DNA from: Candidatus Coprenecus pullistercoris
Lineage (GTDB): Bacteria > Bacteroidota > Bacteroidia > Bacteroidales > UBA932
NCBI GenBank assembly: GCA_019116965.1
Contig: DXAT01000041.1
Span: forward strand, 1-29,806
Reading direction: 5' to 3'
Length of the DNA: 29,806 nucleotides
The notes beneath the pieces were generated by a model that was not told the origin of the DNA, searched no databases, and worked only from the letters and a program-made list of their open reading frames with translations. Below are positions 105-13,090 of this stretch, in pieces. The first letter of the stretch is position 1; each line of letters begins with the position of its first letter. Made by a program: the position numbers and the translations under genes.

Positions 105-698
105 ATGGCAGTAAGGACTGATTTGCCGCAGGTGGCGGCTTTGAGACAGGCCGTGGAGAAGCGGTTCGGGCGTACGGTTGGAAGCCGTGCGGATTTTGCT
201 CTCCTGGCATCGGAGATAGAGTGTATAACCAGTGAGCATATCGCCGAGAATACGCTGCGGCGGATATGGGGCAGTCTGAAAGGTTATGAGACTGCGTTTG
301 ACAGGACTTTGGATGTGCTGTGTCACTATATCGGATTCAGCGGCTGGGAGGCTTTCTGCAAGCATGTCAGGGAGGTGAGCGGAAAGGAGTCGGACCTGGT
401 CTCCGGCGGCAGGTCGGTGAGGACGGATAGCTTGCAGGCAGGGGACCGGCTTCGGATAGGCTGGCTGCCGGACCGGCTGTGCGTGGTGGAACTGGAGGAC
501 GGACGCACATTCAGGGCGGTGGAGGCGGAAAATTCCACGATACGGCCCGGAGATACTTTTGAATGCAGCCTGTTCATCCTGGGTTATCCGCTGACCGTTG
601 ACAATTTCGTGCATGACGGACAGGCGGTGCCCCGATATGTGATGGGTATTGACCATGGGCTTACGACTTTGGAACAATTAAAATCATCTGATTTATGA
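105..698 (+). CDS. Hypothetical protein. Stop overlaps the start of the downstream kinase (ATGA), suggesting a co-translated partner.
   Basis: 197-aa ORF in the track. Its TGA (696-698) overlaps the ATG (695-697) of the kinase gene. No family recognised from sequence. Confidence 0.5.
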   Translation: MAVRTDLPQVAALRQAVEKRFGRTVGSRADFALLASEIECITSEHIAENTLRRIWGSLKGYETAFDRTLDVLCHYIGFSGWEAFCKHVREVSGKESDLVSGGRSVRTDSLQAGDRLRIGWLPDRLCVVELEDGRTFRAVEAENSTIRPGDTFECSLFILGYPLTVDNFVHDGQAVPRYVMGIDHGLTTLEQLKSSDL

Positions 699-1975
699 AA
701 ATACATTCCGGTTCGGTAGATGTTTCCGGTGTTTCGGGACAGGATGGTATCGTCATCTTGGGGTCAATAAGCGAGGGGCGGATGTTCCGTACCCTGAAAG
801 CCAGGCACGGAACGAGATATGTGGCTCTTAAAGCGGCCGTTGAGGACAATGCGATGTCTGTCTCGCTTCTCAGGCGGGAGTATGAGCTGTGCAGGGACCT
901 GTCGCATCCATGCGTGGTGAGTATTTTAGGGTTCGAGGAGGATACTCCTGCCGGTCCCGCAATCGAGATGGAGTACATCTCGGGGCGTACTCTGGATGAG
1001 TTCGTGGCGACGGCTCCTTCTGCCGCTCAGCGCAGGGCAGTGCTCAAGGATATTCTGGACGGAATGGATTATCTGCATCACCGGGGAATCCTGCACAACG
1101 ACCTCAAGCCGGACAATATCGTGGTCAATGCCAACGGGGCCGCCCGTATCATAGATTTCGGGTTGTCGGTCAGCGAGGACAGTGTCTATGCCGGGGCGGT
1201 GGGAGGCACTTGCGGCTACTCCGCTCCGGAAGTCCTTCAAGGGGATGGCTCTGCCGGAGCCGCATCGGATATCTATTCGCTCGGCCTGATAATCAACCTG
1301 CTTTTCGGCGGTCGCCGCTACCGCAGGCTCGCCCGTCGCTGCAGCCGTCCCGAACCGGCAGAGCGCTTCCAGAGCATCCCGGATCTGAGAAAAGCTCTGA
1401 CTGCGACGGACCGTCGTCCCTTTATCTGGGCAGGAACAGGAGCCTTGCTGCTTGTATTGTCGGCCGTGGTGTATGCCCTTGATGTAAAAAACAAAAATGC
1501 CGGCGAGCAGATCGAGACTTTCAGCAAGCAGGTTCTGGAAGAGACCGGACAGATGTACCGCGATGCGGTGGACGAGATGAAAACGGCCGTTGACAATATA
1601 CCCGTGGACTCTGTCGTAGACAGCCGTATGCAGCAGAAGGCGGATGATGAGACCGCCCGCTTTGAGAGATTCATGAAGCAGGCCATGACGGAGACCGAGC
1701 AACTATACCGCAGTGCTGTTGACTGCATCAAGGCAGCACAGGATCAAAAGACTATAGATAGTGTAAGGTTCAGTTTCACTGATGACTTCGGAGAATATTT
1801 AATGTCGTTGCCGAAGAGGTATCCGGCGGCAGAGCCGGGAACATTTTCCCCGGAGGTTTGGGCGGCTCATGAGATATACAAGCTGCGGCTGGCTCAGTTT
1901 GACTCTGTAATGTCTGAGATTTATCCGTCATTACCATGGGATGCGGATGAAAATGAAGCGGCGGAATCCAGATGA
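695..1975 (+). CDS. Membrane-anchored Ser/Thr protein kinase (Hanks-type). N-terminal kinase domain, one TM helix, acidic C-terminal extracytoplasmic domain with an internal tandem repeat.
   Basis: Catalytic loop HNDLKPDNIVV, DFG-like IIDFGLS and GTCGYSAPE activation segment. Hydrophobic segment PFIWAGTGALLLVLSAVVYAL. C-terminal ~45-aa duplicated units (QMYRDAVDEMKTAVDNIPVDSV / EQLYRSAVDCIKAAQDQKTIDSV). Confidence 0.85.
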   Translation: MKIHSGSVDVSGVSGQDGIVILGSISEGRMFRTLKARHGTRYVALKAAVEDNAMSVSLLRREYELCRDLSHPCVVSILGFEEDTPAGPAIEMEYISGRTLDEFVATAPSAAQRRAVLKDILDGMDYLHHRGILHNDLKPDNIVVNANGAARIIDFGLSVSEDSVYAGAVGGTCGYSAPEVLQGDGSAGAASDIYSLGLIINLLFGGRRYRRLARRCSRPEPAERFQSIPDLRKALTATDRRPFIWAGTGALLLVLSAVVYALDVKNKNAGEQIETFSKQVLEETGQMYRDAVDEMKTAVDNIPVDSVVDSRMQQKADDETARFERFMKQAMTETEQLYRSAVDCIKAAQDQKTIDSVRFSFTDDFGEYLMSLPKRYPAAEPGTFSPEVWAAHEIYKLRLAQFDSVMSEIYPSLPWDADENEAAESR

Positions 1976-1990: not shown

Positions 1991-2013
1991 GTCAAACTGA
2001 AATCATATTGATG

Positions 2014-2694
2014 TTATAAGAGTATGTCCATCAGTTCCTGAGCGTCTTCCAGTGCTTCTTTGGCGTCCTGGAGGTCCTGCTCGAGATCTTCGTCAATGGT
2101 TTCATCGAATACATCCTTCAGGTCCTCCTCTATGCTTGTAGTGGATGTATTTCCGCTGTCATCGGATACCCTGTAGTAGGCGTAGATGTCAAAGGCAATA
2201 TCGAAATCTGCAATCTGGTCGATGATGCCGGTCTCGCCTAACAGGGCATAGCAGAAAGTCCAGTTGTAGCTGTCGCCTACGCTTGACCAGTTCAGCATTT
2301 TCTCCAAGTTTTCTATATTGACGAGTTTCATGTATATGCTTTCTCCGTCTGCATTCTTGATCGGATCACCCTGTGTGTCGTAGATCTGCAGTTCGAAATC
2401 CTCAGCCGATACCGATGAGGCCCAGGAATCCGGGAAATCCTTGATGACCTGAGCATATACGGATACATAGAGTTTGTCGTCTTTCACATAGAACTTGTAG
2501 GAGCCGTCCGGTACCGAGATGTAATCGTCTGCGTCATAAGTCTCGCTCTCTTCCGTGTCGGAGTTCTCATAGCAGATATCTCCGTAAAGCTCGACATCTC
2601 TGACGGCTACCTCTTTTGAGGTACCTCCTCCGCAGGATGTGGCAGCCATGACGGATGCGGCCGCCGCAATGATTGTGATAAAAGTTTTTTTCAT
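2014..2694 (-). CDS. Acidic lipoprotein, hypothetical.
   Basis: Signal peptide plus lipobox Cys (MKKTFITIIAAAASVMAATSCGGG). Highly D/E-rich C-terminal half. Confidence 0.7.
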   Translation of the reverse strand: MKKTFITIIAAAASVMAATSCGGGTSKEVAVRDVELYGDICYENSDTEESETYDADDYISVPDGSYKFYVKDDKLYVSVYAQVIKDFPDSWASSVSAEDFELQIYDTQGDPIKNADGESIYMKLVNIENLEKMLNWSSVGDSYNWTFCYALLGETGIIDQIADFDIAFDIYAYYRVSDDSGNTSTTSIEEDLKDVFDETIDEDLEQDLQDAKEALEDAQELMDILL

Positions 2695-2714
2695 CTTTAT
2701 TTAAATATTAAGTG

Positions 2715-4538
2715 TTAAAGTTGCTTTGCCTTTGTTATGTCGAATGATTCCGCACACAACCTCATCTCATTGTTGTATTTGATGCTGATCTGGTAGATTA
2801 TGGACGGATCCTTTTTCTTTTTCCCCTTCTTTATGATATTGCACAATACTGTCCGGTTGTCGGTATCCACATCGACAATCTCATATCCGATGATATCGCA
2901 GAACGGTTTGAGCCGGTCTGCAAAATCGGCTTGCCAATAAGATACTGTAGATTCGGTATAGAAGAAATCTTCGCACGAACCATTGTCTGTTGTGCTGTAA
3001 GCAATCTTTGATGCTTTGCTGGCATCTACCATGAATTCAAAGGGAGCGCGTAATGAATAGACGGTAATTTCCTTTGATATATTTTTCAATGTCGTGTTGT
3101 AGTCATTGATAGAATTCGTCTTGATGATAACTCTTTGCGAAATGTCAGGACTATAAGATAAAAGGCAGTAGTTGTCATTAAGTTCCATGAGCTGTAAGTC
3201 CTTGGAATCGCGCAGTGCAGAGGAAATAGAGCGCAGGATTTCCGAATCGCTTAAGTTCATTCCTAATTTGGTGGCTGTGGCTTTGCCCGAGTTTATTGAC
3301 TGCTTTATGTATGATCCGGCATCTACCTGATCGGAGCCGAAAATGGCTTGGCTCAATGTAACGGCCTGTGAGGCAATGGCTGCATTGATGCAGGAGTCTA
3401 CCGCATTCATCTGTTCCGAAGTGAGATATGCCTTGTGTTCATAGTTGGGAAGCTTTATTGACGGATTCTGTAGATAGTTTTTGAAACCATCCCAGTTCCT
3501 GATACTTATGTACGCCTGGTCTTCATCTGTATTGATGCACCAGTAAATATCGCCCTCTTTGCTGATTAGCGGATCAGAGTATCTATCGTCCAGTGTGAAC
3601 TTTTTGACGGTTTCAACCAGATATGCGGCTCCCTCATCGCTGATGTATGCTCTTTCAGTAAGATATTCATATTTTGGATTGTTCCTTTTGCTCAGGTTGT
3701 ACCCTTGCAGGCTTTCGAAATCGAAACCGTCCTTGAGGGACAATATAGCCATCCTGGCGTAGTTCCCGATGGTCAGACTGTCTTGTCTTATTGTATATCC
3801 GAGATTCAGCAGCTGCTCCTTGTTTATTTCCCCGGCAGCATATTTTCTTGACATCTCGGTGACGGCCGGTTTTGTAGAGGATTTTCTGGTCGTCTTGCTT
3901 ATCAGGACTCCGTCAATAAATTCGTATTTGTCGTTACCTATTATCCATGTTCCGGTAGGGATTCCTTCCGGGTTAAGGCTTCCCTTCACGGAAGTGGTCA
4001 TGCCCTCCCTGCCATATTTGTTCGGGCCGATGTATTCGTATGCGCCGGTCAATATTCCGTTGTCATAGTGAGCATTCAGCAGGACGGCTCCCCAAATGTC
4101 GTAATCTTCTAAGGAAATATTGTTTTTGACTTTGAAATCGCCATGTGGTATTCCTCCCTTTATGAAGTTTCCCGAAAAATTACATTGCATATTTACTGGA
4201 GTGTTGTTTAGACTTCCGGAGACTTTGCATGATGATGACGCCGCTCCATAGAGCCCGCCATTGGAAAATACCGCATCCAGTTTATATCTTACATCAAGAT
4301 TGCCCCAAAGTGTAAGGCGATTGAATTCATAAGATTCTTGTGCATTGATATTCAGGCTTCCGTCTTTGATGTTTGAACCGTTTTCTCCAATGATGTAATG
4401 ATAATTCGCTTTACCAGTAATAAGTCCGAGTGATGTGGCTTTGGTGTAAGTGACTGTGTTTTGTTTGCGTTGGGCAAAGGATGTCCCCAAGCACATCAGG
4501 CATGCAGTGCCGAGCAATAGGATTTTCTTCATTTTCAT
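2715..4538 (-). CDS. Secreted hypothetical protein (607 aa) with Gly-rich, MORN-like short repeats.
   Basis: N-terminal signal peptide MKMKKILLLGTACLMCLGTSFAQ. Long uninterrupted ORF. 20-bp spacing to the downstream lipoprotein gene suggests an operon. Confidence 0.75.
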   Translation of the reverse strand: MKMKKILLLGTACLMCLGTSFAQRKQNTVTYTKATSLGLITGKANYHYIIGENGSNIKDGSLNINAQESYEFNRLTLWGNLDVRYKLDAVFSNGGLYGAASSSCKVSGSLNNTPVNMQCNFSGNFIKGGIPHGDFKVKNNISLEDYDIWGAVLLNAHYDNGILTGAYEYIGPNKYGREGMTTSVKGSLNPEGIPTGTWIIGNDKYEFIDGVLISKTTRKSSTKPAVTEMSRKYAAGEINKEQLLNLGYTIRQDSLTIGNYARMAILSLKDGFDFESLQGYNLSKRNNPKYEYLTERAYISDEGAAYLVETVKKFTLDDRYSDPLISKEGDIYWCINTDEDQAYISIRNWDGFKNYLQNPSIKLPNYEHKAYLTSEQMNAVDSCINAAIASQAVTLSQAIFGSDQVDAGSYIKQSINSGKATATKLGMNLSDSEILRSISSALRDSKDLQLMELNDNYCLLSYSPDISQRVIIKTNSINDYNTTLKNISKEITVYSLRAPFEFMVDASKASKIAYSTTDNGSCEDFFYTESTVSYWQADFADRLKPFCDIIGYEIVDVDTDNRTVLCNIIKKGKKKKDPSIIYQISIKYNNEMRLCAESFDITKAKQL

Positions 4539-4559
4539 ATTCGATTAATTGTGAGTTGA

Positions 4560-4622
4560 TTGGTATATGCAAAGTTGCAAAAAGCGTCGTTTGGTTCAAT
4601 GGCCCTTTTTGGCCCTAATTCC
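4560..4622 (-). repeat. Truncated 3' part (~60 bp) of the X/20-mer repeat family. The 20-mer GGCCCTTTTTGGCCCTAATT (4601-4620) encodes the last 7 codons of the PD-(D/E)xK gene. A cAacTTTG -7-like box sits ahead of the 2715..4538 gene.
   Basis: About 55 bp align with 5680-5735 (tatgcaaaGttgcAaa...ggccctttttggccctaattcc). Confidence 0.7.
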
Positions 4623-5345
4623 TGCTTGGATGGTGGTAAGCAGGTATCTGAATCTGTCACCGTTCTTTGTAAGTGCGGTGATGGCAGTGTCGTCCCAGTG
4701 GCACAGGTAGCTGCCATGCAGCACGAAGTCCGGATGAGATCCGATGATTTTTTCAGAGATCTTTCCCCATTTCAGTAATCCGGGACCAATCCGATTCCCT
4801 TCATGTGTGGAGAATGCGCGATAGCTTACATCTGTACTGGGACCGTTCCAGTAGATTCTGTTGTTGGTGACGAGCAGGGCAACACCGTCGGTCATATTTG
4901 GGTAGCATTGATTCAAGGCCTCGATGCGGCGTATGTCTTTCCAGTAGTTGTACATAATGATATCTCCTGCGCCTTGGTTCTTAATGATCCGGCAACCTGT
5001 TTTCAAATCTTCTCCGAAACGGGAAGGTTGATTGATAACAGGGCATGTGGCATACTTAAATTCTACGGCGGCAAACCGGCCGTCTTTTTCCACCACCACA
5101 TCGATGGACAGGTCATTGTCCCATGGAAAATCTAAGCTCTCTTTTCCTACTTTCAGATGGCGGACGCATAATTCTTCTTTCGGCACGGCATACTCCATGT
5201 CCACTCTGTCGTAATGCTTCTTTTCTTTGAGCCACATGGTTATCCGCACCTGCAGGTCTCTTTCATTGAAGATGAGTTCCTTGTTGCTTTTCAGAAAATC
5301 CTCCAGGTCGCAACGCAGCAATGTCAACAGGTTGCTGTTTTTCAT
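4596..5345 (-). CDS. Stand-alone PD-(D/E)xK (restriction-endonuclease-fold) nuclease family protein.
   Basis: Motif SIDVVVEKDGRFAAVEFKY (D ... E-x-K with 13-residue spacing). Single-gene cassette bounded by the 20-mer repeats. Lower GC than the core genes. Confidence 0.65.
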   Translation of the reverse strand: MKNSNLLTLLRCDLEDFLKSNKELIFNERDLQVRITMWLKEKKHYDRVDMEYAVPKEELCVRHLKVGKESLDFPWDNDLSIDVVVEKDGRFAAVEFKYATCPVINQPSRFGEDLKTGCRIIKNQGAGDIIMYNYWKDIRRIEALNQCYPNMTDGVALLVTNNRIYWNGPSTDVSYRAFSTHEGNRIGPGLLKWGKISEKIIGSHPDFVLHGSYLCHWDDTAITALTKNGDRFRYLLTTIQAGIRAKKGH

Positions 5346-5398
5346 GTCGTTTAAAATTAAATGTGCAGGCGGACTCCTATCTCTGCCAATTTATTAAA

Positions 5399-5735
5399 AA
5401 GAAAGTGTGGAGCCGGTCCGTCTGTCTTTGAAGAGGTTCTGACAAAACCCGAATGTAGGCAGGCTGAACAATCCCCACACTCGTATCGATTGTGAGAATA
5501 CACAAGTCAATACAAGTGATGGTGCCGTCGTTGTCCTTACATTCGTTGAAACTGTCAGATTTCTTCAAAAGGACAGTGCGAAAACACTTTCACCAATATG
5601 TCCGCCACATGTTTTGTCACATGGCACTACAAATATACTAACTTTTTCCATAAAGCAGCACCTTGCAGGGATTGTTTCGTATGCAAATTTGCGAATATTT
5701 ATACAGATATGGCGGCCCTTTTTGGCCCTAATTCC
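5399..5735 (-). repeat. Full copy 2 of the ~330-bp noncoding element X plus the 20-mer (5714-5733). Candidate structured 5' leader or recombination module directly upstream of the PD-(D/E)xK gene.
   Basis: About 85-90% identity to 10966-11291 over ~330 bp. The reading frames of the small ORFs inside are not conserved between copies. Conserved hairpin ACTGTC-N15-GACAGT. Long-range helix AACAAUCCCUGCA/UGUGGGGAUUGUU on the minus strand. Confidence 0.8.
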
Positions 5736-6419
5736 GATTCAGGCAAGTATGGTGCAGTTCAAACATCAGCAGTCTGCAGGCATTTTGATATACCGTCGCC
5801 GGTCTTATGGATTATCGGTGTCTTTGGGGAGAGAAAAGGTATAAAACTTTTGGTACACCTCACTATCTGTAATCCGGTAATCGCCATAATGTGCACATAT
5901 TCAGCTGTTTGCTGCCGCAGCCTCATAACAGATACGGCGCTTTTTGCCTGGAATTCGCCTTAATACGGCCTTATCTGTTATGCAGATTTTGACATATGAT
6001 GCTAATATATAGTCATTTACATAAAGAATACAATAACAGATGCTAAGGTCTATTAGGTACGCGCCACGAAAATCCATCTGTCTACACCCCTGAAATCGGA
6101 TGCAACGGTATAATATGTAAGTGCGCGCACCTGATTTTGACAGATGTAATGGATAATCAGTTGGTTGTATTTGATGTAATATGCGCGTACTTTCCGTAAA
6201 TACACCGGCATAAGATGTCGTATGTGATGGATGTGGCAGGGAGGCAGGCTACAAGTCTTTTTGACCGCTTGCAGCCTGGCGCTCCACTCTCTGCCGAGGA
6301 CATGCTCTCTTGTATATGCTCCTTAGTGTGAGTAAGTTCCTATTTGCGACACAGGATAGGTCCCGCTGATATGGCCATGGACTTGGGCCCAGAGTCTTGT
6401 AAAGTGACAGCTGCGGAAT

Positions 6420-7067
6420 TCAGCGGAAAATGCCGAATTTAACAGAAGCGGTAACGCTGTCTCGGAAAGTCTGTCCACCTTTGTAGCGTTGATAATAAAA
6501 GAGGTGATATAAGGTACTGTTCCCTCAATTACGAAATCAGTGATTTCGCAATTAAATGGGTATAATTTTACTCTCCCCGTCAAGCATCTGAATTGGACAC
6601 ATAACCTGATACTTTTACAGCAGGTCAAAGACATACGGGCAAGGTATTGGCGCATGGTGCAATACATTGTGCCCCATTGGAATACCGCTATTTGCAGGAA
6701 GCCATTAAACTTGATGATTACGGCAAACACGGGGCTTTGGCAAACAATTTTACCGAAACCCTCCCTGCACCGGTATCTGGTGATTGAGCTGAAAGACACA
6801 GAGTTCATGCCGGAATATATCGGCAAGCTCAACTTCTACTGTTCCGCCGTGGATGATATACTCTGCCGTGAAGGTGACAATCGCACTATCGGCCTTTTGC
6901 TCTGCAAGACCAAGGACCGCATCAAAGCTGAATATGCCTTGCGCGATATTCAGAAGCCGATAGGGATTTCCGATTATGAATTGGGATAGGCTTTGCCGGA
7001 AGATTTTCGGGGGAGCCTGCCTACGATTGAGGAAATCGAAAACGAATTAGAGGCAAAACAATCCTGA
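6420..7067 (+). pseudogene. Degraded yhcG-like (DUF1016, PD-(D/E)xK nuclease) pseudogene. N-terminal region eroded, with an internal deletion and an in-frame TAG at 6987-6989.
   Basis: The 6540-6989 ORF carries LNWTHNLILL (N-domain motif) fused to YLVIELKDTEFMPEYIGKLNFYCSAVDD...TIGLLLCKTKDRIKAEYALRDIQKPIGISDYEL. The family C-terminus ALPEDFRGSLPTIEEIENELEAKQS continues in frame after the TAG, to 7067. Confidence 0.6.
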
Positions 7068-7353
7068 TATTCAGCAAAAATGTAGGAGAAAGTGGGTCAG
7101 TGGCGGTAGTCGCTGAGACCGAGATTCTTTCCCTTTTGGCTGCCATACCGAGCATGAGCATAATGTCCGGCTTCATGTACTGCAGTAAACCGGATACAAT
7201 TTCCGTTACTTTCCTGAAACTTACCGGTAACCGTACTGCCTTGACCCAATCTTTGAAACTGTCGCAGGATGCTGCCTCTGCGGCGACATCCCACGACAGA
7301 TTCCTGTCCCGGCCTCCGAACGGCTCAGATCCTGTAATCAATACCGATATCAT
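7021..7353 (-). pseudogene. pcp: Truncated pyroglutamyl-peptidase I (pcp) fragment. N-terminal ~85 residues are recognisable, then divergence or truncation.
   Basis: MISVLITGSEPFGGRDRNLSWD...LPVSF...KPDIMLMLGMAAKRERISV matches the Pcp N-terminus (VLLTGFDPFGG...NPSWE...PDIIICVGQAGGR..ITPERVAIN). The remaining ~130 aa are absent. The fragment overlaps the yhcG remnant convergently. Confidence 0.55.
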
Positions 7354-7448
7354 CAGAGCACTATCAACTGTAAATTAACAACATCTAAAACATTGCGTCA
7401 TACCTGTCAGTCGTTATTTAGCCTCTGTCCTCAGTTCATTAATTGTGT

Positions 7449-7793
7449 CTATGTATGCTTGGTCGTAAATCGTATAATTAAAATCATTATTAAAAGTAAT
7501 AATGCATTGACAATGATGTACAATGGTACAGAAAACTCAAAAAAAGCAAAGGTGAAATTAAGGACAAGCAGAATGAATAGAAAGATTCCACCAATAGTGT
7601 GCATGACAATACCGGCTCGCTCTGTATTGGCTTTTAAGGCAATAGTGAACAGGCCGGATACGACAAGTGCTATAAAAGTAGTAATCGTGGCAACCCATTT
7701 AAGGTCCTCAATTTTGACGATGCTGTATTCCCCCCAAGACAGTAATGCTGAGATGGCGACGGTGACTATTGTGTAGAAAATGTCTATTCTCAT
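7449..7793 (-). CDS. Small integral membrane protein (3 predicted TM helices), hypothetical.
   Basis: 114-aa ORF with three long hydrophobic stretches. Its start overlaps the stop of the upstream gene (7793/7795). Confidence 0.55.
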   Translation of the reverse strand: MRIDIFYTIVTVAISALLSWGEYSIVKIEDLKWVATITTFIALVVSGLFTIALKANTERAGIVMHTIGGIFLFILLVLNFTFAFFEFSVPLYIIVNALLLLIMILIIRFTTKHT

Positions 7794-7794
7794 C

Positions 7795-8124
7795 TCAATG
7801 TTTATTCAAGATTATTAATTTCATAATTTCAGGTATGAGTTTCGCCTGTGTCCAGCCGCTCATGCCTGGTTTCCACATTAAGGTGTCTTCTTTTATTTTA
7901 TAAGATGATACCAGTGTGTTTACTTCAGGCTCAGTAATGGGGCCAATCTGAACATTGTCCACGATAGCATAATATTGTGATTCTGTTTTTATGACAGGTG
8001 CTCCTGAACCAGGGGTTTGCATATTATCTATAACATGATTCATGGTCGCAATCATCTGCTGCGCGACGGCCATACTCATGCCGAACTCTAAAAGTCTGTC
8101 TAATGAATTAAACGAGTTGTCCAT
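7795..8124 (-). CDS. GYF_2 (DUF4339) domain protein. Paralog of the C-terminal domain of the SPFH protein.
   Basis: YYAIVDNVQIGPITEPEVNTLVSSYKIKEDTLMWKPGMSGWTQAKLIPEI parallels LAINGQQSGPFSIPQLQQLAQQGKINAQTYVWKPGMSEWIMAGQVDEL in the upstream gene. Confidence 0.65.
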   Translation of the reverse strand: MDNSFNSLDRLLEFGMSMAVAQQMIATMNHVIDNMQTPGSGAPVIKTESQYYAIVDNVQIGPITEPEVNTLVSSYKIKEDTLMWKPGMSGWTQAKLIPEIMKLIILNKH

Positions 8125-8144
8125 ATTGATTCAATTATGTTTGA

Positions 8145-9500
8145 TTATTGAGGCATTGGGGGCATCGGTGGTGGGGGAGGTGTGTTGGGTATAAATATGT
8201 TTTTAAGTTCATCGACCTGACCGGCCATGATCCATTCGCTCATGCCCGGCTTCCAAACATAAGTCTGGGCATTAATCTTTCCTTGTTGCGCAAGTTGCTG
8301 CAGTTGCGGTATGGAGAATGGACCGCTTTGTTGGCCATTGATTGCGAGCATATATGTCGGGATAGGTGGCGGGGGCGGGGTGTTCATGCCGTTTTGCATT
8401 GTCTGACCCATATTATTCATCATCCCTGCCATCTGACTGCCCATGGCTCCTCCCATCATCATGCCGGTCATCATTCCTGCGGCGTTCATGCCTCCTCCGT
8501 CTCCCATATAGCCCATGGCTCCGAGGTTTTCAGCTCCTGCCCGTAGGACACTAGCCTGCTGATCCAGTGCATGGGCCCCTATGAAATTGGTCTCAGTCTG
8601 CAGGCGTTGAGCACGCTGTGCTTCCTGTCGGTTGATACGCAAGGTCTCCTGCGTATTCTCTGCGTTTATAGCCTGTGTATCTGCCATATTCTTTATGCTG
8701 ACTTTGGTCTGTGCCTGGATTGTCTGCGCCTGTTGCATGGCGGTTACATGGCGGAGTTCCATATATCCATCGCTTTCTTTGTCTGGATCTATGCGGTTTA
8801 TATCCACTCGCTTGACATTTACGCCAAAATCTTCAGACAATTCCTTTGACAGCCGTTCTTGGAGAAGGTCTGATATCTCAGTTATTTTCCTTTCTATTTG
8901 CAGGACGGGGATGCCGTTGTCCTGAGGAGCGTTGCTGACAAATGACTTGACATATTTAGTGACGGCATCTTTTATTTGCTTGTTAAAATCTTCCAATGTG
9001 AAATTTATCATCCTGTTCAGCTTTATGAAAGCTTTATAGTCAGATATATTGAAAGTGATACTGCCTTGTACAGCCATCGGTACTGCGAAATCAAGAAACC
9101 GGGGATCAAATACATCAAAGAATGGAATTGTGAACTCGATTTGAATGTTTCGTGCAAGATTTATAAAATATATTTCCGCTTGGAAAGGAGACTCACCTCC
9201 ATAGGCTAAGCCTATAATGTTGGCCAAAACAGGAAAGTTTGCCGTTTCGATGGTCTCGTCATAAGGTCCTTCAATATAGTCTTGGAGTGTTCCGTCTTTT
9301 TGTTTGTACACAAAAACTGCCACTTCTCCGTCTTTTACCCTGAGGCTACTGCCAAAGCGGATGGAATTTTCCCTTGTGGTAGAATTTACATCTTGTCCTT
9401 CCGGTCTCCATTTCCAGACAAGATATTCTTTCTCATCACAGCGGATGACATTCATCATCCCCCCTGATTTTCCCTTTTTGCCAATTCCAAATAGTCCCAT
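8145..9500 (-). CDS. SPFH/Band-7 (Band_7_1, YdjI-like) domain protein with a Gly/Met-rich low-complexity linker, polyproline tracts and a C-terminal GYF_2 domain.
   Basis: N-terminus MGLFGIGKK...VIRCDEKEYLVWKW is typical of YdjI-type SPFH proteins. Coiled-coil Q-rich segment. GAMGYMGDGGGMNAAGMMTGMMMGGAMGSQMAGMMNNMG linker. TPPPPPIPT and NTPPPPPMPPMPQ tracts. Confidence 0.8.
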   Translation of the reverse strand: MGLFGIGKKGKSGGMMNVIRCDEKEYLVWKWRPEGQDVNSTTRENSIRFGSSLRVKDGEVAVFVYKQKDGTLQDYIEGPYDETIETANFPVLANIIGLAYGGESPFQAEIYFINLARNIQIEFTIPFFDVFDPRFLDFAVPMAVQGSITFNISDYKAFIKLNRMINFTLEDFNKQIKDAVTKYVKSFVSNAPQDNGIPVLQIERKITEISDLLQERLSKELSEDFGVNVKRVDINRIDPDKESDGYMELRHVTAMQQAQTIQAQTKVSIKNMADTQAINAENTQETLRINRQEAQRAQRLQTETNFIGAHALDQQASVLRAGAENLGAMGYMGDGGGMNAAGMMTGMMMGGAMGSQMAGMMNNMGQTMQNGMNTPPPPPIPTYMLAINGQQSGPFSIPQLQQLAQQGKINAQTYVWKPGMSEWIMAGQVDELKNIFIPNTPPPPPMPPMPQ

Positions 9501-9505
9501 GTTGT

Positions 9506-10342
9506 TTATATGCTCGGTTGGTTAAATAATGATATTAAAGCCTCTATGCCGCTTGATATTAGACATATCAGTAGGATTATGATTGTGACTTTCCATGCCC
9601 AGTGCAGGCGCTTGAACCATGCAAGAAAGCCAACCCCAATAACTTTTCGTTTAAATCTTGTGTAGTCATCAATAAACGGTTTGAAAATATCATCATTTTT
9701 GAAGCTGAGTTCTGCTTTGTTTATGCATTCCTGATATTTTTTCCAATATGCCATTCTGCATGGATCTGAGGAGTCTGTAATATGCGGCTTGGCGGATGTT
9801 AGAAAATCAAGCAAATCAGCCTTGGCATTTGGTATGGGAAAAGTCTCTATGATATTTATTCTTTTTTTTATATCCTCTACTTCTGATAATTTGTTTGATA
9901 ATTTTTCATAAGACATAGAGGCGTCAATGTTTAGGAACTCGTATCCGCAAGCTGTGCAAACAGGACTGAATGCTTTTACAAGGGCATTGCACTGAGGACA
10001 CCGGCGCACATCTCCGAATTTTTCAGATTTTGGAGCCGATAAATTAGACGGGGCGCTTTTTTTATTATTAATCTGGTTGTATTCGCTTAAGCGTGCATCA
10101 AGCACCATTTCAAATTCATCAAGGTCAATACCTTTTGCCTGGGCTTTTTTGAATAGTATTTGTTTTTCTTTTTCAGTTAAAGTACCGTCTATTATTGCGA
10201 GGTCAATGAGTTTTTCCATTTCTGCATCATAGAGTCCGGTCCGTGTTTGCGAGGATTGTGTTTTTCTCATTGTCATTTGTTGTGACGGAACTGAATTGAC
10301 CTCATCGTACAGTTCTTTAATTATATTTTTTAATGTAGACAT
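9506..10342 (-). CDS. Zinc-ribbon protein with an N-terminal TerB-like/co-chaperone-like helical domain and a C-terminal TM anchor.
   Basis: CPQCNALVKAFSPVCTACGYEF (C-x2-C ... C-x2-C). N-terminal LIDLAIIDGTLTEKEKQILFKKAQAKGIDLDEF. C-terminal hydrophobic VTIIILLICLISSGIEALISLF. Sits 5 bp upstream of the SPFH gene. Confidence 0.65.
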   Translation of the reverse strand: MSTLKNIIKELYDEVNSVPSQQMTMRKTQSSQTRTGLYDAEMEKLIDLAIIDGTLTEKEKQILFKKAQAKGIDLDEFEMVLDARLSEYNQINNKKSAPSNLSAPKSEKFGDVRRCPQCNALVKAFSPVCTACGYEFLNIDASMSYEKLSNKLSEVEDIKKRINIIETFPIPNAKADLLDFLTSAKPHITDSSDPCRMAYWKKYQECINKAELSFKNDDIFKPFIDDYTRFKRKVIGVGFLAWFKRLHWAWKVTIIILLICLISSGIEALISLFNQPSI

Positions 10343-10354
10343 AAGGATTATATT

Positions 10355-10915
10355 TTACAGCCAGGAAAATATTTGATCAAGTTGTCCCAATAGTTCAGAG
10401 TTGCCGGTCTTGTCCTTGATCATCTCACCCAAAAGTTGAAAATCAAGATATAGCTCTTTGCCGATACTCGGCAAAGACTGAGTTATATACTTGACATTTG
10501 ATGATGATGACAGGGCTTCTCTGGCAGTCATTGATTTGACAATATCTGTAATGTTTGTGAGTGATGTTGTTAGCTCAGCTAATTTCCCTGCAAGTTGAGT
10601 GACTTCTTTACCTAAGCCGTATAGTTCATCTATTGATGGCGAGGCACTTTTGTTTTCTGCATTATCTTCAAGATCAAAATAAGTGATATAGAAATTTTTG
10701 ATAATAGGACTGATTCTGATTGTTACATCAGCGATTTCTTTGCAGGTTTTTGCGGCATTGTCAATAATGTCAACCCCGCAGTCTTCTGGTAAGTCAAGAT
10801 TTTGCATTTTCTCAATTCGTTCTTCTGATTCTTCGCACCATTCTAATGACTGGGGGAAAGCCATTTGTTGGAAAGAGAGAATCATAACCAATGTTGCAAA
10901 AAGTGCTCTTTTCAT
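10355..10915 (-). CDS. Secreted hypothetical protein. First gene after element X copy 3.
   Basis: Signal peptide MKRALFATLVMILSFQQMAFPQS. 12 bp upstream of the zinc-ribbon gene. Confidence 0.6.
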   Translation of the reverse strand: MKRALFATLVMILSFQQMAFPQSLEWCEESEERIEKMQNLDLPEDCGVDIIDNAAKTCKEIADVTIRISPIIKNFYITYFDLEDNAENKSASPSIDELYGLGKEVTQLAGKLAELTTSLTNITDIVKSMTAREALSSSSNVKYITQSLPSIGKELYLDFQLLGEMIKDKTGNSELLGQLDQIFSWL

Positions 10916-10965
10916 TACTTTTAATTTTTAGGTCAGTCGGCTCCCAGGACTGACGGGCTTATAAT

Positions 10966-11291
10966 AAGAAAGTGTGGAGCCGGTCCGTCTGTCTTCCAAG
11001 AGGCTCTGACAAAGCCCGAACATAAACAGACTGAAACAATCCCCACACCTGTATCGCTTGTGATGAATACACAACCAATACGGGTGACGGTGCTGTCGTC
11101 GTCCTTACGTTCGTTGAAACTGTCAGATTTCTTGGAAAGGACAGTGCGAAAACACTTTCACCAATATGTCCGCCATGCGTTTCCGTGCATGACGCCACAA
11201 ATATACTAAATTTTCATGTAAACAGCACCCTGTGGGGATTGTTCCGCAGGCAAATATGGGAATATTATTGACAGCCTCCCCGGCCCTTTTC
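10966..11291 (-). repeat. Full copy 3 of the ~330-bp element X plus a 20-mer variant GGCCCTTTTCGGCCCTAATT (11272-11291). Lies between the hipT stop and the SPFH-module operon.
   Basis: Aligns with 5399-5735. Long-range 13-bp helix AACAATCCCCACA (11034-11046) / TGTGGGGATTGTT (about 11234-11246). cAtaTTTG -7-like box on the minus strand just inside the 20-mer. Confidence 0.8.
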
Positions 11292-11321
11292 GGCCCTAAT
11301 TTCGTCAAGCTTTGAGTTGTA

Positions 11322-12263
11322 CTATCCCAGCAGCTGCAGTCTGCCGGCAATTATTTTGATGAAGTTCTGCTGCATGTTCTCCGGAAGGAATGACAACCCT
11401 ATGAACATTTGCCATTTACTGAAGGCATTGTGGAATTTACTGAAGATATTCTCAATGATTTTCTCCTCCAGTCCGCAGGCCGACATCTCGGTGATGAAAT
11501 CAGCCTTTTTGATTTTACGTTTCTTGCCGTTGAGAGTCAATGCGAGTTCCTCGGTGTCTTCCGGCATAACCAACGCTGTGGACAGCATGTCGTATGCCGG
11601 TGTGAGAGTGTAGTTGCCGGCCAGCTTGCTGTAGAGGGAAAAGTTTTTCAGGTGCATATCGGCATTGCCTGTAATCCAGGAAAATACCACCTGCTCCCAG
11701 AAATTGACTAGATCAAGTTTGGGTACGGATGAGTATTTTCTTATGGTTTTCGCTATCTGGCCGTATGAGCCCCGGTATTTATGCTCTGTAAGACGTTCCG
11801 TAAGCTGGCACATGTCTTCCATTGCCAGTTTCCCTCCGTTGGCGGTGCGGTCGATGCGTCTGGTTATATAGCACAGTTCTCTGTCGGCGAAACGTATCAG
11901 GCTGTGCGGGACTACTTTCATTTTGGCCAGTTCAGCCAGATGCATGGTTAGGTCTTCCACTTCCGGAAGATTGCTGAAGCGGTCGGTCTGCGGCTTGAGA
12001 ATGTACCGGCCCCACAGTCCTACGATAGTGAAGCGCTCTTTTCCGCCCGGCCTGTCCTTGCAGATGTCCAGGGACAATTTGGCCTGAACTCCTGTCAAAG
12101 TGGTCTGGCTGCGGATTACCTGCTTCGCAAGGTCAGTGAGATTGTCCCGGGTGTACGGTAGCACCGGAGCCTCGGGAGCTCCGAATATTTTTTTCGCACA
12201 TTCCCTATGAAAATCCTTCTCATTCTCGTGCAGCTCCTTATAGCAGTAAAGACATTTGGCCAT
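11322..12263 (-). CDS. hipT: HipT-like kinase toxin (HipA C-terminal kinase core) of a tripartite HipBST system.
   Basis: 313 aa. HipA-family catalytic loop GNADMHLKNFSL. Lacks the HipA N-terminal subdomain, which is encoded separately upstream. Confidence 0.85.
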   Translation of the reverse strand: MAKCLYCYKELHENEKDFHRECAKKIFGAPEAPVLPYTRDNLTDLAKQVIRSQTTLTGVQAKLSLDICKDRPGGKERFTIVGLWGRYILKPQTDRFSNLPEVEDLTMHLAELAKMKVVPHSLIRFADRELCYITRRIDRTANGGKLAMEDMCQLTERLTEHKYRGSYGQIAKTIRKYSSVPKLDLVNFWEQVVFSWITGNADMHLKNFSLYSKLAGNYTLTPAYDMLSTALVMPEDTEELALTLNGKKRKIKKADFITEMSACGLEEKIIENIFSKFHNAFSKWQMFIGLSFLPENMQQNFIKIIAGRLQLLG

Positions 12264-12265
12264 GA

Positions 12266-12595
12266 TTATTCCTCCTTTTCTGTTATCGGTTCAACACCTA
12301 CAGCTCCTATGCAGTCCTTGCAGCAGGCCAGCAGCAGGGACATGCGGTCCCGTGCGTCAATTTTCCAATTCCTCTCAGCGATGTCAAGCAGCCAGCCTTC
12401 GGGAATCAGGCCGTCGAAAAAGGGAAACAGGACTTTGTCCCTATAGGGTCTGTCGGTCAAAGGCAGAGTAAGACTTATGGCCTCAGCCTTTTCTGATGTC
12501 AGAAATCCGCCGTCATACTGGAATGTGTAGCCGTTTTCATCTTCTGTAAGGATGCCGGCCCTCTCGCCGCGTAGATATACCGTCGCCTGTTTCAT
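12266..12595 (-). CDS. hipS: HipS-like protein (HipA N-terminal subdomain homolog). Antitoxin of HipBST-type systems.
   Basis: 109 aa, MKQATVYLRGERAGILTEDENGYTFQYD resembles the HipA N-terminus. 2-bp gap to hipT. 4-bp overlap with hipB. Confidence 0.75.
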   Translation of the reverse strand: MKQATVYLRGERAGILTEDENGYTFQYDGGFLTSEKAEAISLTLPLTDRPYRDKVLFPFFDGLIPEGWLLDIAERNWKIDARDRMSLLLACCKDCIGAVGVEPITEKEE

Positions 12596-12813
12596 AGATC
12601 ATCGGTGTTTTTGGAGAGAGGGACTGCGCCTACTTCGCTGCCGAATAGGTTGAGAATCAAGTTGACTTTGTCCAGTCGGAGAGTCTGTTTGCCCTGCTCC
12701 AGCTCCCGGACAAAGCGCAGGCCGACTCCGGATTTCTCCGACAGGTCTACCTGAGTCAGGCCGTATTGCTTGCGCATGGCCTTTACGTATCTGGATAAGG
12801 TTGTTTGCTGCAT
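12592..12813 (-). CDS. hipB: HipB-like XRE-family HTH transcriptional regulator.
   Basis: 73 aa, helix-turn-helix LTQVDLSEKSGVGLRFVRELEQGK. First gene of the hipB-hipS-hipT operon. Confidence 0.8.
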   Translation of the reverse strand: MQQTTLSRYVKAMRKQYGLTQVDLSEKSGVGLRFVRELEQGKQTLRLDKVNLILNLFGSEVGAVPLSKNTDDL

Positions 12814-12828
12814 GATTATACCCTTTGG

Positions 12829-12850
12829 GGTACAAATATAACAAAATATT
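12829..12850 (-). promoter_or_regulatory. Putative hipBST promoter (-7 box TATATTTG on the minus strand, 12843-12850) with an overlapping palindrome TACCC-N4-GGGTA (12829-12842). Candidate HipB operator.
   Basis: Bacteroidetes TAnnTTTG consensus 22 nt upstream of the hipB ATG. The inverted repeat overlaps the predicted TSS. Confidence 0.35.
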
Positions 12851-13017
12851 CCAAAGATATCCCCGATAAGGTATAAAATACTTTAAATCTAATATGATTA
12901 TACCCGTTCAGGCGTATTGCCCCAAAAATACATCTTGCCCATAATGGTCTTGGAGATTGTCGAGCGGCGGGAAAAAGAGAAAAGCCCCTGGTGCCTTGTG
13001 GCGCCGGAGGCCTTTTG

Positions 13018-13090
13018 TGATCTGCTTGGGGCTCGAACCCAAGACCCCAACATTAAAAGTGTTGTGCTCTACCAACTGAGCTAGCAGATC
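13018..13090 (-). tRNA. tRNA-Lys (anticodon TTT)
   Basis: Reverse complement GATCTGC-TA-GCTC-AGTTGGTA-GAGC-A-CAACA-CTTTTAA-TGTTG-GGGTC-TTGGG-TTCGAGC-CCCAA-GCAGATC-A gives a perfect cloverleaf with anticodon UUU. CCA not encoded. Coordinates +/-1. Confidence 0.9.

Follow-up and report, generated by a model that had tools for sequence, protein, structure and literature searches.

The 29,806-nt window analyzed here (the whole stretch under study, contig DXAT01000041.1 of Candidatus Coprenecus pullistercoris) carries a three-gene cassette, hipBST, next to a tRNA-Lys gene. With a probability of about 0.8, the three genes form a type II toxin-antitoxin operon of the tripartite HipBST type that is intact and self-contained and belongs to the Legionella-like (HipBST_Lp) clade, which is abundant in Bacteroidota. 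Its genes are, in order of reading:

12592 to 12813, minus strand: hipB, coding for a 73-amino acid (aa) helix-turn-helix protein of the Cro/C1 type, likely an autorepressor
12266 to 12595, minus strand: hipS, coding for a 109-aa homologue of HipA N-subdomain 1, likely the antitoxin
11322 to 12263, minus strand: hipT, coding for a 313-aa HipA-type serine/threonine kinase core without N-subdomain 1, likely the toxin

A preliminary description of this DNA had assigned the cassette a 73-aa helix-turn-helix protein, a 109-aa protein like the HipA N-subdomain, and a 313-aa kinase, and both the coordinates and the domains held. The overlapping or abutting stops and starts that it reported were found as a 4-nt overlap (ATGA) at the hipB/hipS junction and as 2 nt between the hipS stop and the hipT ATG. 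The closest solved structure of each of the three proteins was the matching component of L. pneumophila HipBST, and the proposed assignment to the HipBST-type tripartite modules is supported by the predicted domains, the gene order, and these best structure matches. Relatives of HipT were sought in one genome per species (185,579 species), and 246 loci with a HipT relative were confirmed among these species-representative genomes, nearly all of them from Bacteroidota. In the protein database, HipT relatives filled at least 8000 clusters, the closest being 97% identical, and an identical HipT was found only on a 1.9-kb Logan contig that carries the same three genes. Within this known and very widespread family, the cassette is an ordinary member.

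Comparison across the family, for which counts refer to the best 80 of the 246 loci (HipT identity 57-79%), showed a strongly conserved architecture. The hipS gene was immediately 5' of hipT in 80/80 related loci and hipB was 5' of hipS in 79/80, the remaining locus ending at a contig edge, with median sizes of 71, 109, and 313 aa for HipB, HipS, and HipT, respectively. The commonest hipB/hipS junction was the 4-nt overlap (39 loci), and the commonest hipS/hipT junctions were a 4-nt overlap (24 loci) and a 2-nt gap (18 loci). These data bear on whether the locus could be a decayed two-gene hipBA in which a frameshift or stop codon split a full-length hipA into 109-aa and 313-aa pieces of a pseudogene, as the summed length near that of HipA (440 aa) and the position of the hipS and hipT reading frames, 2 nt apart and in different frames, might suggest. 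However, the same split, a start codon belonging to the kinase itself, and near-constant sizes recurred in all 80 loci, the HipS and HipT pieces are both evidently constrained, and the nearest solved relatives are genuinely separate HipS and HipT proteins. Since the B-S-T split was kept throughout, it does not represent a frameshifted hipA, and this explanation is effectively refuted already. Likewise, the fusion of N-subdomain 1 to the kinase that typifies HipBA was seen in none of the 80 relatives, all of which encode the kinase and the N-subdomain in separate genes.

The similarity of the 109-aa HipS to the HipA N-subdomain was borne out by matches to the profiles Couple_hipA PF13657 (3.5e-28) and TIGR03071 (1.3e-32). 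Matches among the solved structures in the PDB were HipS of L. pneumophila (2.5e-15), HI_0666 of H. influenzae (1.1e-13), HipS of E. coli O127 (1.9e-11), and residues 5-106 of HipA (4.6e-8). The HipS motif P65-E-G-W68 was invariant, with W68 in 81/81 sequences, and W68 aligned with E. coli W65, the residue wedged under the Gly-rich loop of the kinase; Legionella HipS has Ile or Met at this position. Published experiments on the E. coli O127 and L. pneumophila systems show neutralization of HipT by HipS and repression or binding of the promoter by HipB (PMC6581861, PMC10627512, PMC9325769, bioRxiv 10.1101/2022.11.26.518041). In three gammaproteobacterial HipBSTs (E. coli O127, H. influenzae, and T. 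auensis) and in L. pneumophila, HipS alone neutralizes HipT and HipB alone does not. The earlier suggestion that HipS is the likely antitoxin and HipT the likely kinase toxin agrees with the homology to the E. coli O127 and L. pneumophila systems. By analogy, HipS and not HipB would neutralize HipT by docking where HipA has its N-subdomain 1, and would hold the Gly-rich loop ejected with ATP binding blocked, probably via Trp68 in the manner of E. coli HipS Trp65.

It is very improbable that HipB is instead the antitoxin, as in classical HipBA, with HipS merely an accessory subunit of the kinase. HipB does have the antitoxin role in the HipBA systems of E. coli K-12 and Shewanella, enters the complex in both characterized HipBSTs, and augments neutralization by HipS in E. 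coli O127. Against this stand the neutralization by HipS alone and the failure of HipB alone in the systems named above, the invariance of the PEGW interface motif of HipS, and the nature of the window HipB itself, which is only 73 aa long and has no Trp at all and therefore no counterpart to the C-terminal Trp inserted into HipA by HipB of K-12.

The HipT kinase matched the HipA_C profile (PF07804, 2.6e-48) over residues 55-283, and its PDB matches were L. pneumophila HipT (8ezr_B/7vkb_A, 4.8e-53), E. coli O127 HipT (7ab3_C, 3.7e-15), and HipA (8e-10). The catalytic motif GNADMHLKNFSL occupies residues 199-210 (GNADMHLKN at 199-207) and contains the catalytic Asp D202, aligned with E. coli D210, whereas the Mg-binding Asp is D225 (the D of PAYD), aligned with E. 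coli D233 and L. pneumophila D219. By the same alignment, K90 corresponds to L. pneumophila K85, and Q60 and K62 to its Q59 and K61. The residues G58, Q60, K62, K90, D202, H204, and K206 were kept in 80/80 homologues, and N207 and D225 in 79/80. The Gly-rich loop reads T54-T55-L56-T57-G-V-Q-A-K62 and was present along with both Asp residues, so that no element of the kinase machinery in doubt beforehand (catalytic Asp and P-loop motifs) was missing. The alignment proposed for finding autophosphorylation serines in this loop recovered the acceptor positions, occupied however by threonines: the (S/T)-aliphatic-(S/T) motif is present as T55-L56-T57, which aligned with E. coli S57-I58-S59, and T55 with L. 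pneumophila S54. T57 was conserved in 78/80 HipT sequences and T55 in 61/80, with Ala in 19; the second loop Thr is better kept than the first, whereas for the E. coli clade the reported emphasis is the opposite one. Autophosphorylation at T55, T57, or both is likely to tune activity or neutralization, and free HipT would be expected, again by analogy, to arrest growth, the most likely route being phosphorylation of a translation factor, for example an aminoacyl-tRNA synthetase. L. pneumophila HipT, the closest characterized relative of the window HipT, targets neither TrpS nor GltX.

A further feature of HipT lies ahead of the kinase domain. The motif C4-x2-C7-x11-H19-x2-C22 (CCHC; window positions ~12254-12198, minus strand) was invariant in 80/80 HipT of the Bacteroidota type, and the HipT proteins of E. 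coli O127 and Legionella have only its first Cys (the Legionella protein begins MKHCPITYEK...). The motif is probably a small zinc site or zinc knuckle. Pfam gave no domain over HipT residues 1-54, and the N-terminal 53 aa matched nothing meaningful in the PDB.

The third component, HipB, matched HTH_3 (1.4e-9) and the TIGR03070 couple_hipB/Y4mF family antitoxin profile (82.1 bits, cutoff 71.65), with L. pneumophila HipB (8ezt_A, 5.8e-6) as its best solved relative. The region upstream of hipB contains a candidate operator array and promoter, followed by the tRNA gene and its hairpin:

12819 to 12832, either strand: operator O1, proximal, TACCCTTTGGGGTA, a perfect TACCC-N4-GGGTA palindrome from -19 that ends 5 nt before the hipB ATG
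12860 to 12873, either strand: operator O2, degenerate, TACCTTATCGGGGA on the minus strand, mismatched at 2 of the 10 specified positions and located 41 bp upstream of O1
12901 to 12914, either strand: operator O3, degenerate, CGCCTGAACGGGTA on the minus strand, with 3 mismatches, 41 bp upstream of O2
12833 to 12840, minus strand: candidate -7 box, TATATTTG, a match to the TAnnTTTG consensus abutting O1
12852 to 12859, minus strand: second -7 match, TATCTTTG, abutting O2
12972 to 13011, minus strand: terminator-like hairpin and U tract directly after the tRNA, -20.8 kcal/mol, z = -2.77, then UUUUCUCUUUUU
13017 to 13090, minus strand: tRNA-Lys(UUU), found by ARAGORN and by Rfam (68.1 bits), upstream of hipB on the same strand

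The TACCC-N4-GGGTA palindrome described earlier is real, occurring once in the window compared to 0.01 expected from shuffles. Operators were surveyed in the 200 nt 5' of hipB in 77 related loci (78 regions when the window is added), with a site defined as ACCC-N4-GGGT with at most one mismatch. Relative to the hipB ATG, a site occurred at about -18 in 60/77 loci (the proximal site, consensus TTgtACCCnAAAGGGTATAA), at about -59 in 57/77, at about -100 in 47/77, and at about -140 in 14/77. The spacing between sites was 41 bp in 94/126 intervals and 40-42 bp in 117/126, corresponding to about four helical turns, and the remaining sequence upstream of hipB was variable among the 77 loci. Three sites were found in 36 of the 78 regions, four in 13, two in 14, one in 8, and none in 7, against a background of 0.09 sites per 200 nt across the loci. 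In the window, O3 retains an intact right half-site (GGGTA).

The promoter consensus of Bacteroidetes has a -7 element of the form TAnnTTTG, and the claim that the palindrome lies at the predicted promoter fits the position of O1, which directly abuts a candidate -7 box matching this consensus. TAnnTTT[GA] abutted or overlapped the proximal palindrome in 53 related loci. In a sigma-70 scan, a TATAAT resembling a -10 box coincided with the start codon, and this candidate was discounted as the host belongs to the Bacteroidales. The terminator-like hairpin after the tRNA implies that hipBST needs its own promoter.

Evidence that HipB reads these palindromes came from covariation of the sites with HipB residue 33, which begins the recognition helix (GVGL-R33-FVRELEQGK):

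HipB Arg33, 74 loci: ACCC..GGGT 2.65 per region, ATCC..GGAT 0.04 per region
HipB Asn33, 3 loci (L041, L043, and L058, from at least two lineages): ACCC..GGGT 0, ATCC..GGAT 1.33 per region
HipB Phe33, 1 locus (L074): ACCC..GGGT 0, ATCC..GGAT 0

The Phe33 locus has AT-rich repeats instead of either operator motif. Residue 33 presumably corresponds to Gln29 of the 434 repressor, and the pairing of Arg with G and of Asn with A is the classic pattern. The covariation is the strongest evidence that HipB reads the palindromes, although with only three switched loci it is suggestive and no proof. Autoregulation by HipB through the palindrome, as proposed beforehand, is supported at the level of sequence by conservation, 41-bp phasing, and this covariation. 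In the resulting model, HipB dimers would bind TACCC-N4-GGGTA, with O1 lying over the likely -7 box and start site and the weaker O2 and O3 placed 41 and 82 bp upstream, and the operon would be repressed. The operator sequence is defined neither in the two Legionella papers nor in the E. coli structure paper. Upstream of hipBST at a single Legionella locus, on a plasmid of L. adelaidensis (L115, positions 629-644, 701-716, and 772-787), three TAC(C/T)G-N6-CAGTA palindromes were identified at 71-72 bp spacing. This different array suggests that repeated operators may be general and the operator sequence clade-specific.

Several points weigh against reading the cassette as an intact and functional module. 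Toxicity, neutralization, DNA binding, and target are all assigned by homology, with HipT 35% identical to the Legionella protein and more distant from that of E. coli. The hipBST promoter is a consensus match only, and O2 and O3 of the window are degenerate, though the 41-bp register is kept. An AlphaFold2 model of HipT (46 homologues, 75-97% identity) had a mean predicted local distance difference test score of 50.4 and a predicted template modeling score of 0.45, too poor for use. Furthermore, the locus mixes E. coli and L. pneumophila features, and mechanistically these two systems are unlike: only the E. coli one uses the Trp wedge, loop residue S57 is essential in E. coli whereas S54 is dispensable in L. 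pneumophila, and their targets also differ. Mechanistic details therefore cannot simply be transferred to the window.

The adjacency of the cassette to a tRNA gene was correctly described, with tRNA-Lys(UUU) upstream of hipB; Rfam detected nothing else in the whole window. The window GyrA, for which an exact-sequence look-up returned no record, was 93-95% identical to proteins of metagenome assemblies and 79-84% identical to those of named Bacteroidales MAGs, Candidatus Coprenecus among them, which places the host with the uncultured Bacteroidales. Contigs of the nearest relatives (GyrA 93% identical) aligned with the window only from 13016/13017 rightwards, where a 285-aa open reading frame (ORF), a gene for a Clp ATPase, gyrA, the gene of a TPR protein, and additional genes are shared; on the other side of their tRNA-Lys, these relatives carry acetyl-CoA hydrolase (62 nt beyond the tRNA) and enolase genes. 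Because synteny ends at the 3' end of tRNA-Lys, the cassette lies in strain-specific DNA, of which hipBST is the first gene set. The G+C content was 37-48% across 2000-11000 compared to 52-58% in the flanks, and this low-GC region contains proteins without assigned function, SPFH/GYF proteins, and gene fragments. No integrase domain was found among the ORFs at 2014-10915, and a search of the window allowing up to 3 mismatches detected no further copy of the tRNA 3' end. A tRNA-Lys island is hence plausible, but no far end was found for it, and its left boundary could fall beyond the window. In one relative (L085), a different insertion, which carries a 1378-aa ORF and a GDPD protein among its contents, separates a 266-aa ORF beside tRNA-Lys from the Clp ATPase gene, which makes the tRNA-Lys neighborhood a hot spot for variable DNA.

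Within the low-GC region, truncated genes were identified for the C-terminal part of a YhcG/PDDEXK nuclease (6540-6989, plus strand, 7.8e-28) and for the N-terminal ~80 residues of a pyroglutamyl peptidase (7021-7353, minus strand, 1.5e-11), and these fragments indicate decay. A run of minus-strand genes encodes a GYF_2-domain protein (7795-8124), an SPFH/Band-7 protein with a C-terminal GYF_2 domain (8145-9500), and a zinc-ribbon protein (9506-10342), and matched no PADLOC defense model. At the GC-rich left edge of the window, positions 695-1975 (plus strand) encode a eukaryotic-type (Hanks) serine/threonine kinase (Pkinase, 3.5e-33) unrelated to the HipA family.

Two further features concern the downstream side of hipT and a second site in the window:

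10962 to 11304, no strand assigned: Element X copy downstream of hipT, 82-86% identical to 5395-5736
5764 to 5846, minus strand: probable ghost of a second hipBST, collinear scraps beside the other Element X copy

Element X is a non-coding repeat of ~345 bp, and a separate 22-nt end piece of it lies at 4601-4622. The repeat reported beside hipT is genuine, but it starts 18 bp after the hipT stop (17 nt between) rather than 31 bp. Its core of ~205 nt (10966-11170) occurred at 75-87% identity in 26 gut-metagenome contigs (L089-L114), none with hipBST, where it is usually flanked by small variable ORFs reading away and, on the other side, by an ORF for a 375-aa ATPase-like protein ~513 nt off. 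The core ends are inverted repeats, alifold predicted a long closing stem on either strand, and Rfam returned nothing at E <= 1; Element X could be a miniature inverted-repeat transposable element or a structured leader RNA. As a part of the module it was rejected: none of the 80 related hipBST loci contains it, and the 26 contigs that do have no hipBST.

In the ghost, positions 5787-5833 matched 12574-12620 (the hipS start and hipB end) at 85% identity (E = 3e-10), with the hipS ATG now ATA. Positions 5764-5785 matched 11331-11352 (the hipT 3' end) at 82%, and 5833-5846 matched 12865-12878 (possibly the operator region), both matches being collinear though not significant alone. The arrangement of the scraps points to a probable second unit of Element X and hipBST from which a single deletion removed toxin and antitoxin; joint loss would be the sole safe way to lose an active toxin-antitoxin pair.

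The biological role of the cassette at this locus could be DNA stabilization, stress dormancy, or phage defense. Elsewhere the cassette was found alone, between lpxB and housekeeping genes, within a capsule-synthesis cluster, and next to frr and rsgA. In one group of Bacteroidales contigs (L116-L118), hipBST is inserted midway in a cluster for capsule/glycan biosynthesis and shares the orientation of the glycosyltransferase genes. Adjacency to a tRNA as a family trait was rejected, as any tRNA lay within 1.5 kb in only ~7/80 loci and the tRNAs differed. Because the cassette usually travels alone and has few tRNA neighbors, island stabilization is a possible local role and not a family trait, and it should not be assumed.

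The same machinery might instead serve mainly in abortive infection (phage defense) or stress dormancy and not in addiction to a tRNA-Lys island, a possible but rather unlikely alternative. It would suit the solitary occurrence of the cassette in core-gene or capsule-gene surroundings, where no integrase lay within 7-10 kb, the small number of plasmid records carrying a HipT homologue (15), the low-GC surroundings with unassigned and fragmentary genes typical of variable islands, and matches of HipS and HipT to the PADLOC candidate system PDC-M03 (2.5e-5 and 6e-5). These matches are weak, though, and do not establish membership; moreover, no HipT homologue was found in phage records, the cassette stands here at the edge of strain-specific DNA, and the deleted second copy nearby fits the turnover of selfish modules. 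No HipBST is known to have a defense phenotype. It is more doubtful still that the module has been domesticated, with HipT a non-toxic regulatory kinase or permanently inhibited and toxin-antitoxin behavior lost. Such an outcome would match a cassette that is very widespread and stably chromosomal in Bacteroidota and a toxin whose target is not known even in the closest characterized relative. Against it count the invariance of every catalytic residue and of the antitoxin interface, the tight autoregulatory operator arrays that have been maintained, and the ghost copy, which appears to have lost toxin and antitoxin together.

In gut Bacteroidales, few kinase toxin systems are commoner than HipBST modules, and the window adds no new kind of system. 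Its new contribution is modest and consists of the operator array with the Arg33 covariation, the mosaic of E. coli and L. pneumophila residues, and the clade-specific CCHC motif. The hypotheses offered are a 41-bp-phased operator, a HipB residue that switches specificity, HipT and HipS residues to mutate, and a probable clade-specific metal site. Arg33 with ACCC/GGGT compared to Asn33 with ATCC/GGAT would give a simple, testable code for HipB protein-DNA recognition.

Legionella-type HipBST has been described as a clade apart from the E. coli type, with HipBST_Lp homologues ‘widely distributed’ in the Fibrobacteres-Chlorobi-Bacteroidetes (FCB) superphylum including Bacteroidota (Lin et al., bioRxiv 10.1101/2022.11.26.518041). 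The statement that HipBST systems are not characterized in Bacteroidetes stands with regard to experiments, as a full-text literature search found no experimental test of any Bacteroidota HipBST, but not with regard to occurrence in the phylum, which was already reported in the same study. The L. pneumophila system (Lpg2368-Lpg2369-Lpg2370; PDB 7VKB, 8EZR, and 8EZT) has the same gene order as the window and similar sizes (72/102/~312 aa compared to 73/109/313 aa), with a short HipB in both, and the ATP-site residues K85, Q59, K61, and D219 of its HipT are K90, Q60, K62, and D225 in the window. Differences from Legionella are the single loop serine of its HipT (S-V-Q compared to T-L-T), the Ile or Met of its HipS in place of the invariant Trp68, and the presence of C4 alone from the C4/C7/H19/C22 set, all four of which occur in the window HipT. 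The L. adelaidensis plasmid copy is 35% identical to the window in HipT and 42% in HipS, and its TAC(C/T)G-N6-CAGTA operators at 71-72 bp contrast with TACCC-N4-GGGTA at 41 bp.

The E. coli O127:H6 system (PDB 7AB3-5) shares the tripartite order and, with the window, a double Ser/Thr around an aliphatic residue in the loop (S57-I-S59 and T55-L-T57), the PEGW Trp wedge of HipS (W65 and W68), and a distance of 23 residues between the catalytic and Mg-binding Asp (D210/D233 and D202/D225). Its HipT is much less similar to that of the window (3.7e-15), lacks the CCHC motif, and targets TrpS, whereas no target is assigned to the window HipT. E. coli HipB is longer, at about 107 aa. Taken together, the alignments suggest that the locus is Legionella-like overall and E. 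coli-like at two mechanistic positions.

Comparison with the two-gene HipBA of E. coli K-12 revealed a common kinase fold family and catalytic motifs, as well as a helix-turn-helix autorepressor acting on repeated palindromic operators, predicted in the case of the window. The K-12 operators are four TATCC-N8-GGATA sites, unlike those of the window in sequence and spacing, and K-12 also differs in having N-subdomain 1 fused to the kinase and HipB as the antitoxin. GltX is a known target for E. coli K-12 HipA only. The candidate system PDC-M03 likewise uses a HipA-like kinase and a HipS-like domain, with HipS matching PDC-M03B and HipT matching PDC-M03A; membership was rejected because the matches are weak (~1e-5) and cover partial regions and because the architecture differs, the B component having 245 aa. 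That the Bacteroidota systems form a distinct HipBST subclass, and are not merely copies of the Legionella one, is a tentative and somewhat doubtful proposal, made because of the CCHC motif, the Thr-x-Thr loop with its second Thr conserved, and the E. coli-like Trp wedge. If it is true, the metal site might contribute to regulation or to target recognition, and the kinase might act on a new cellular target.

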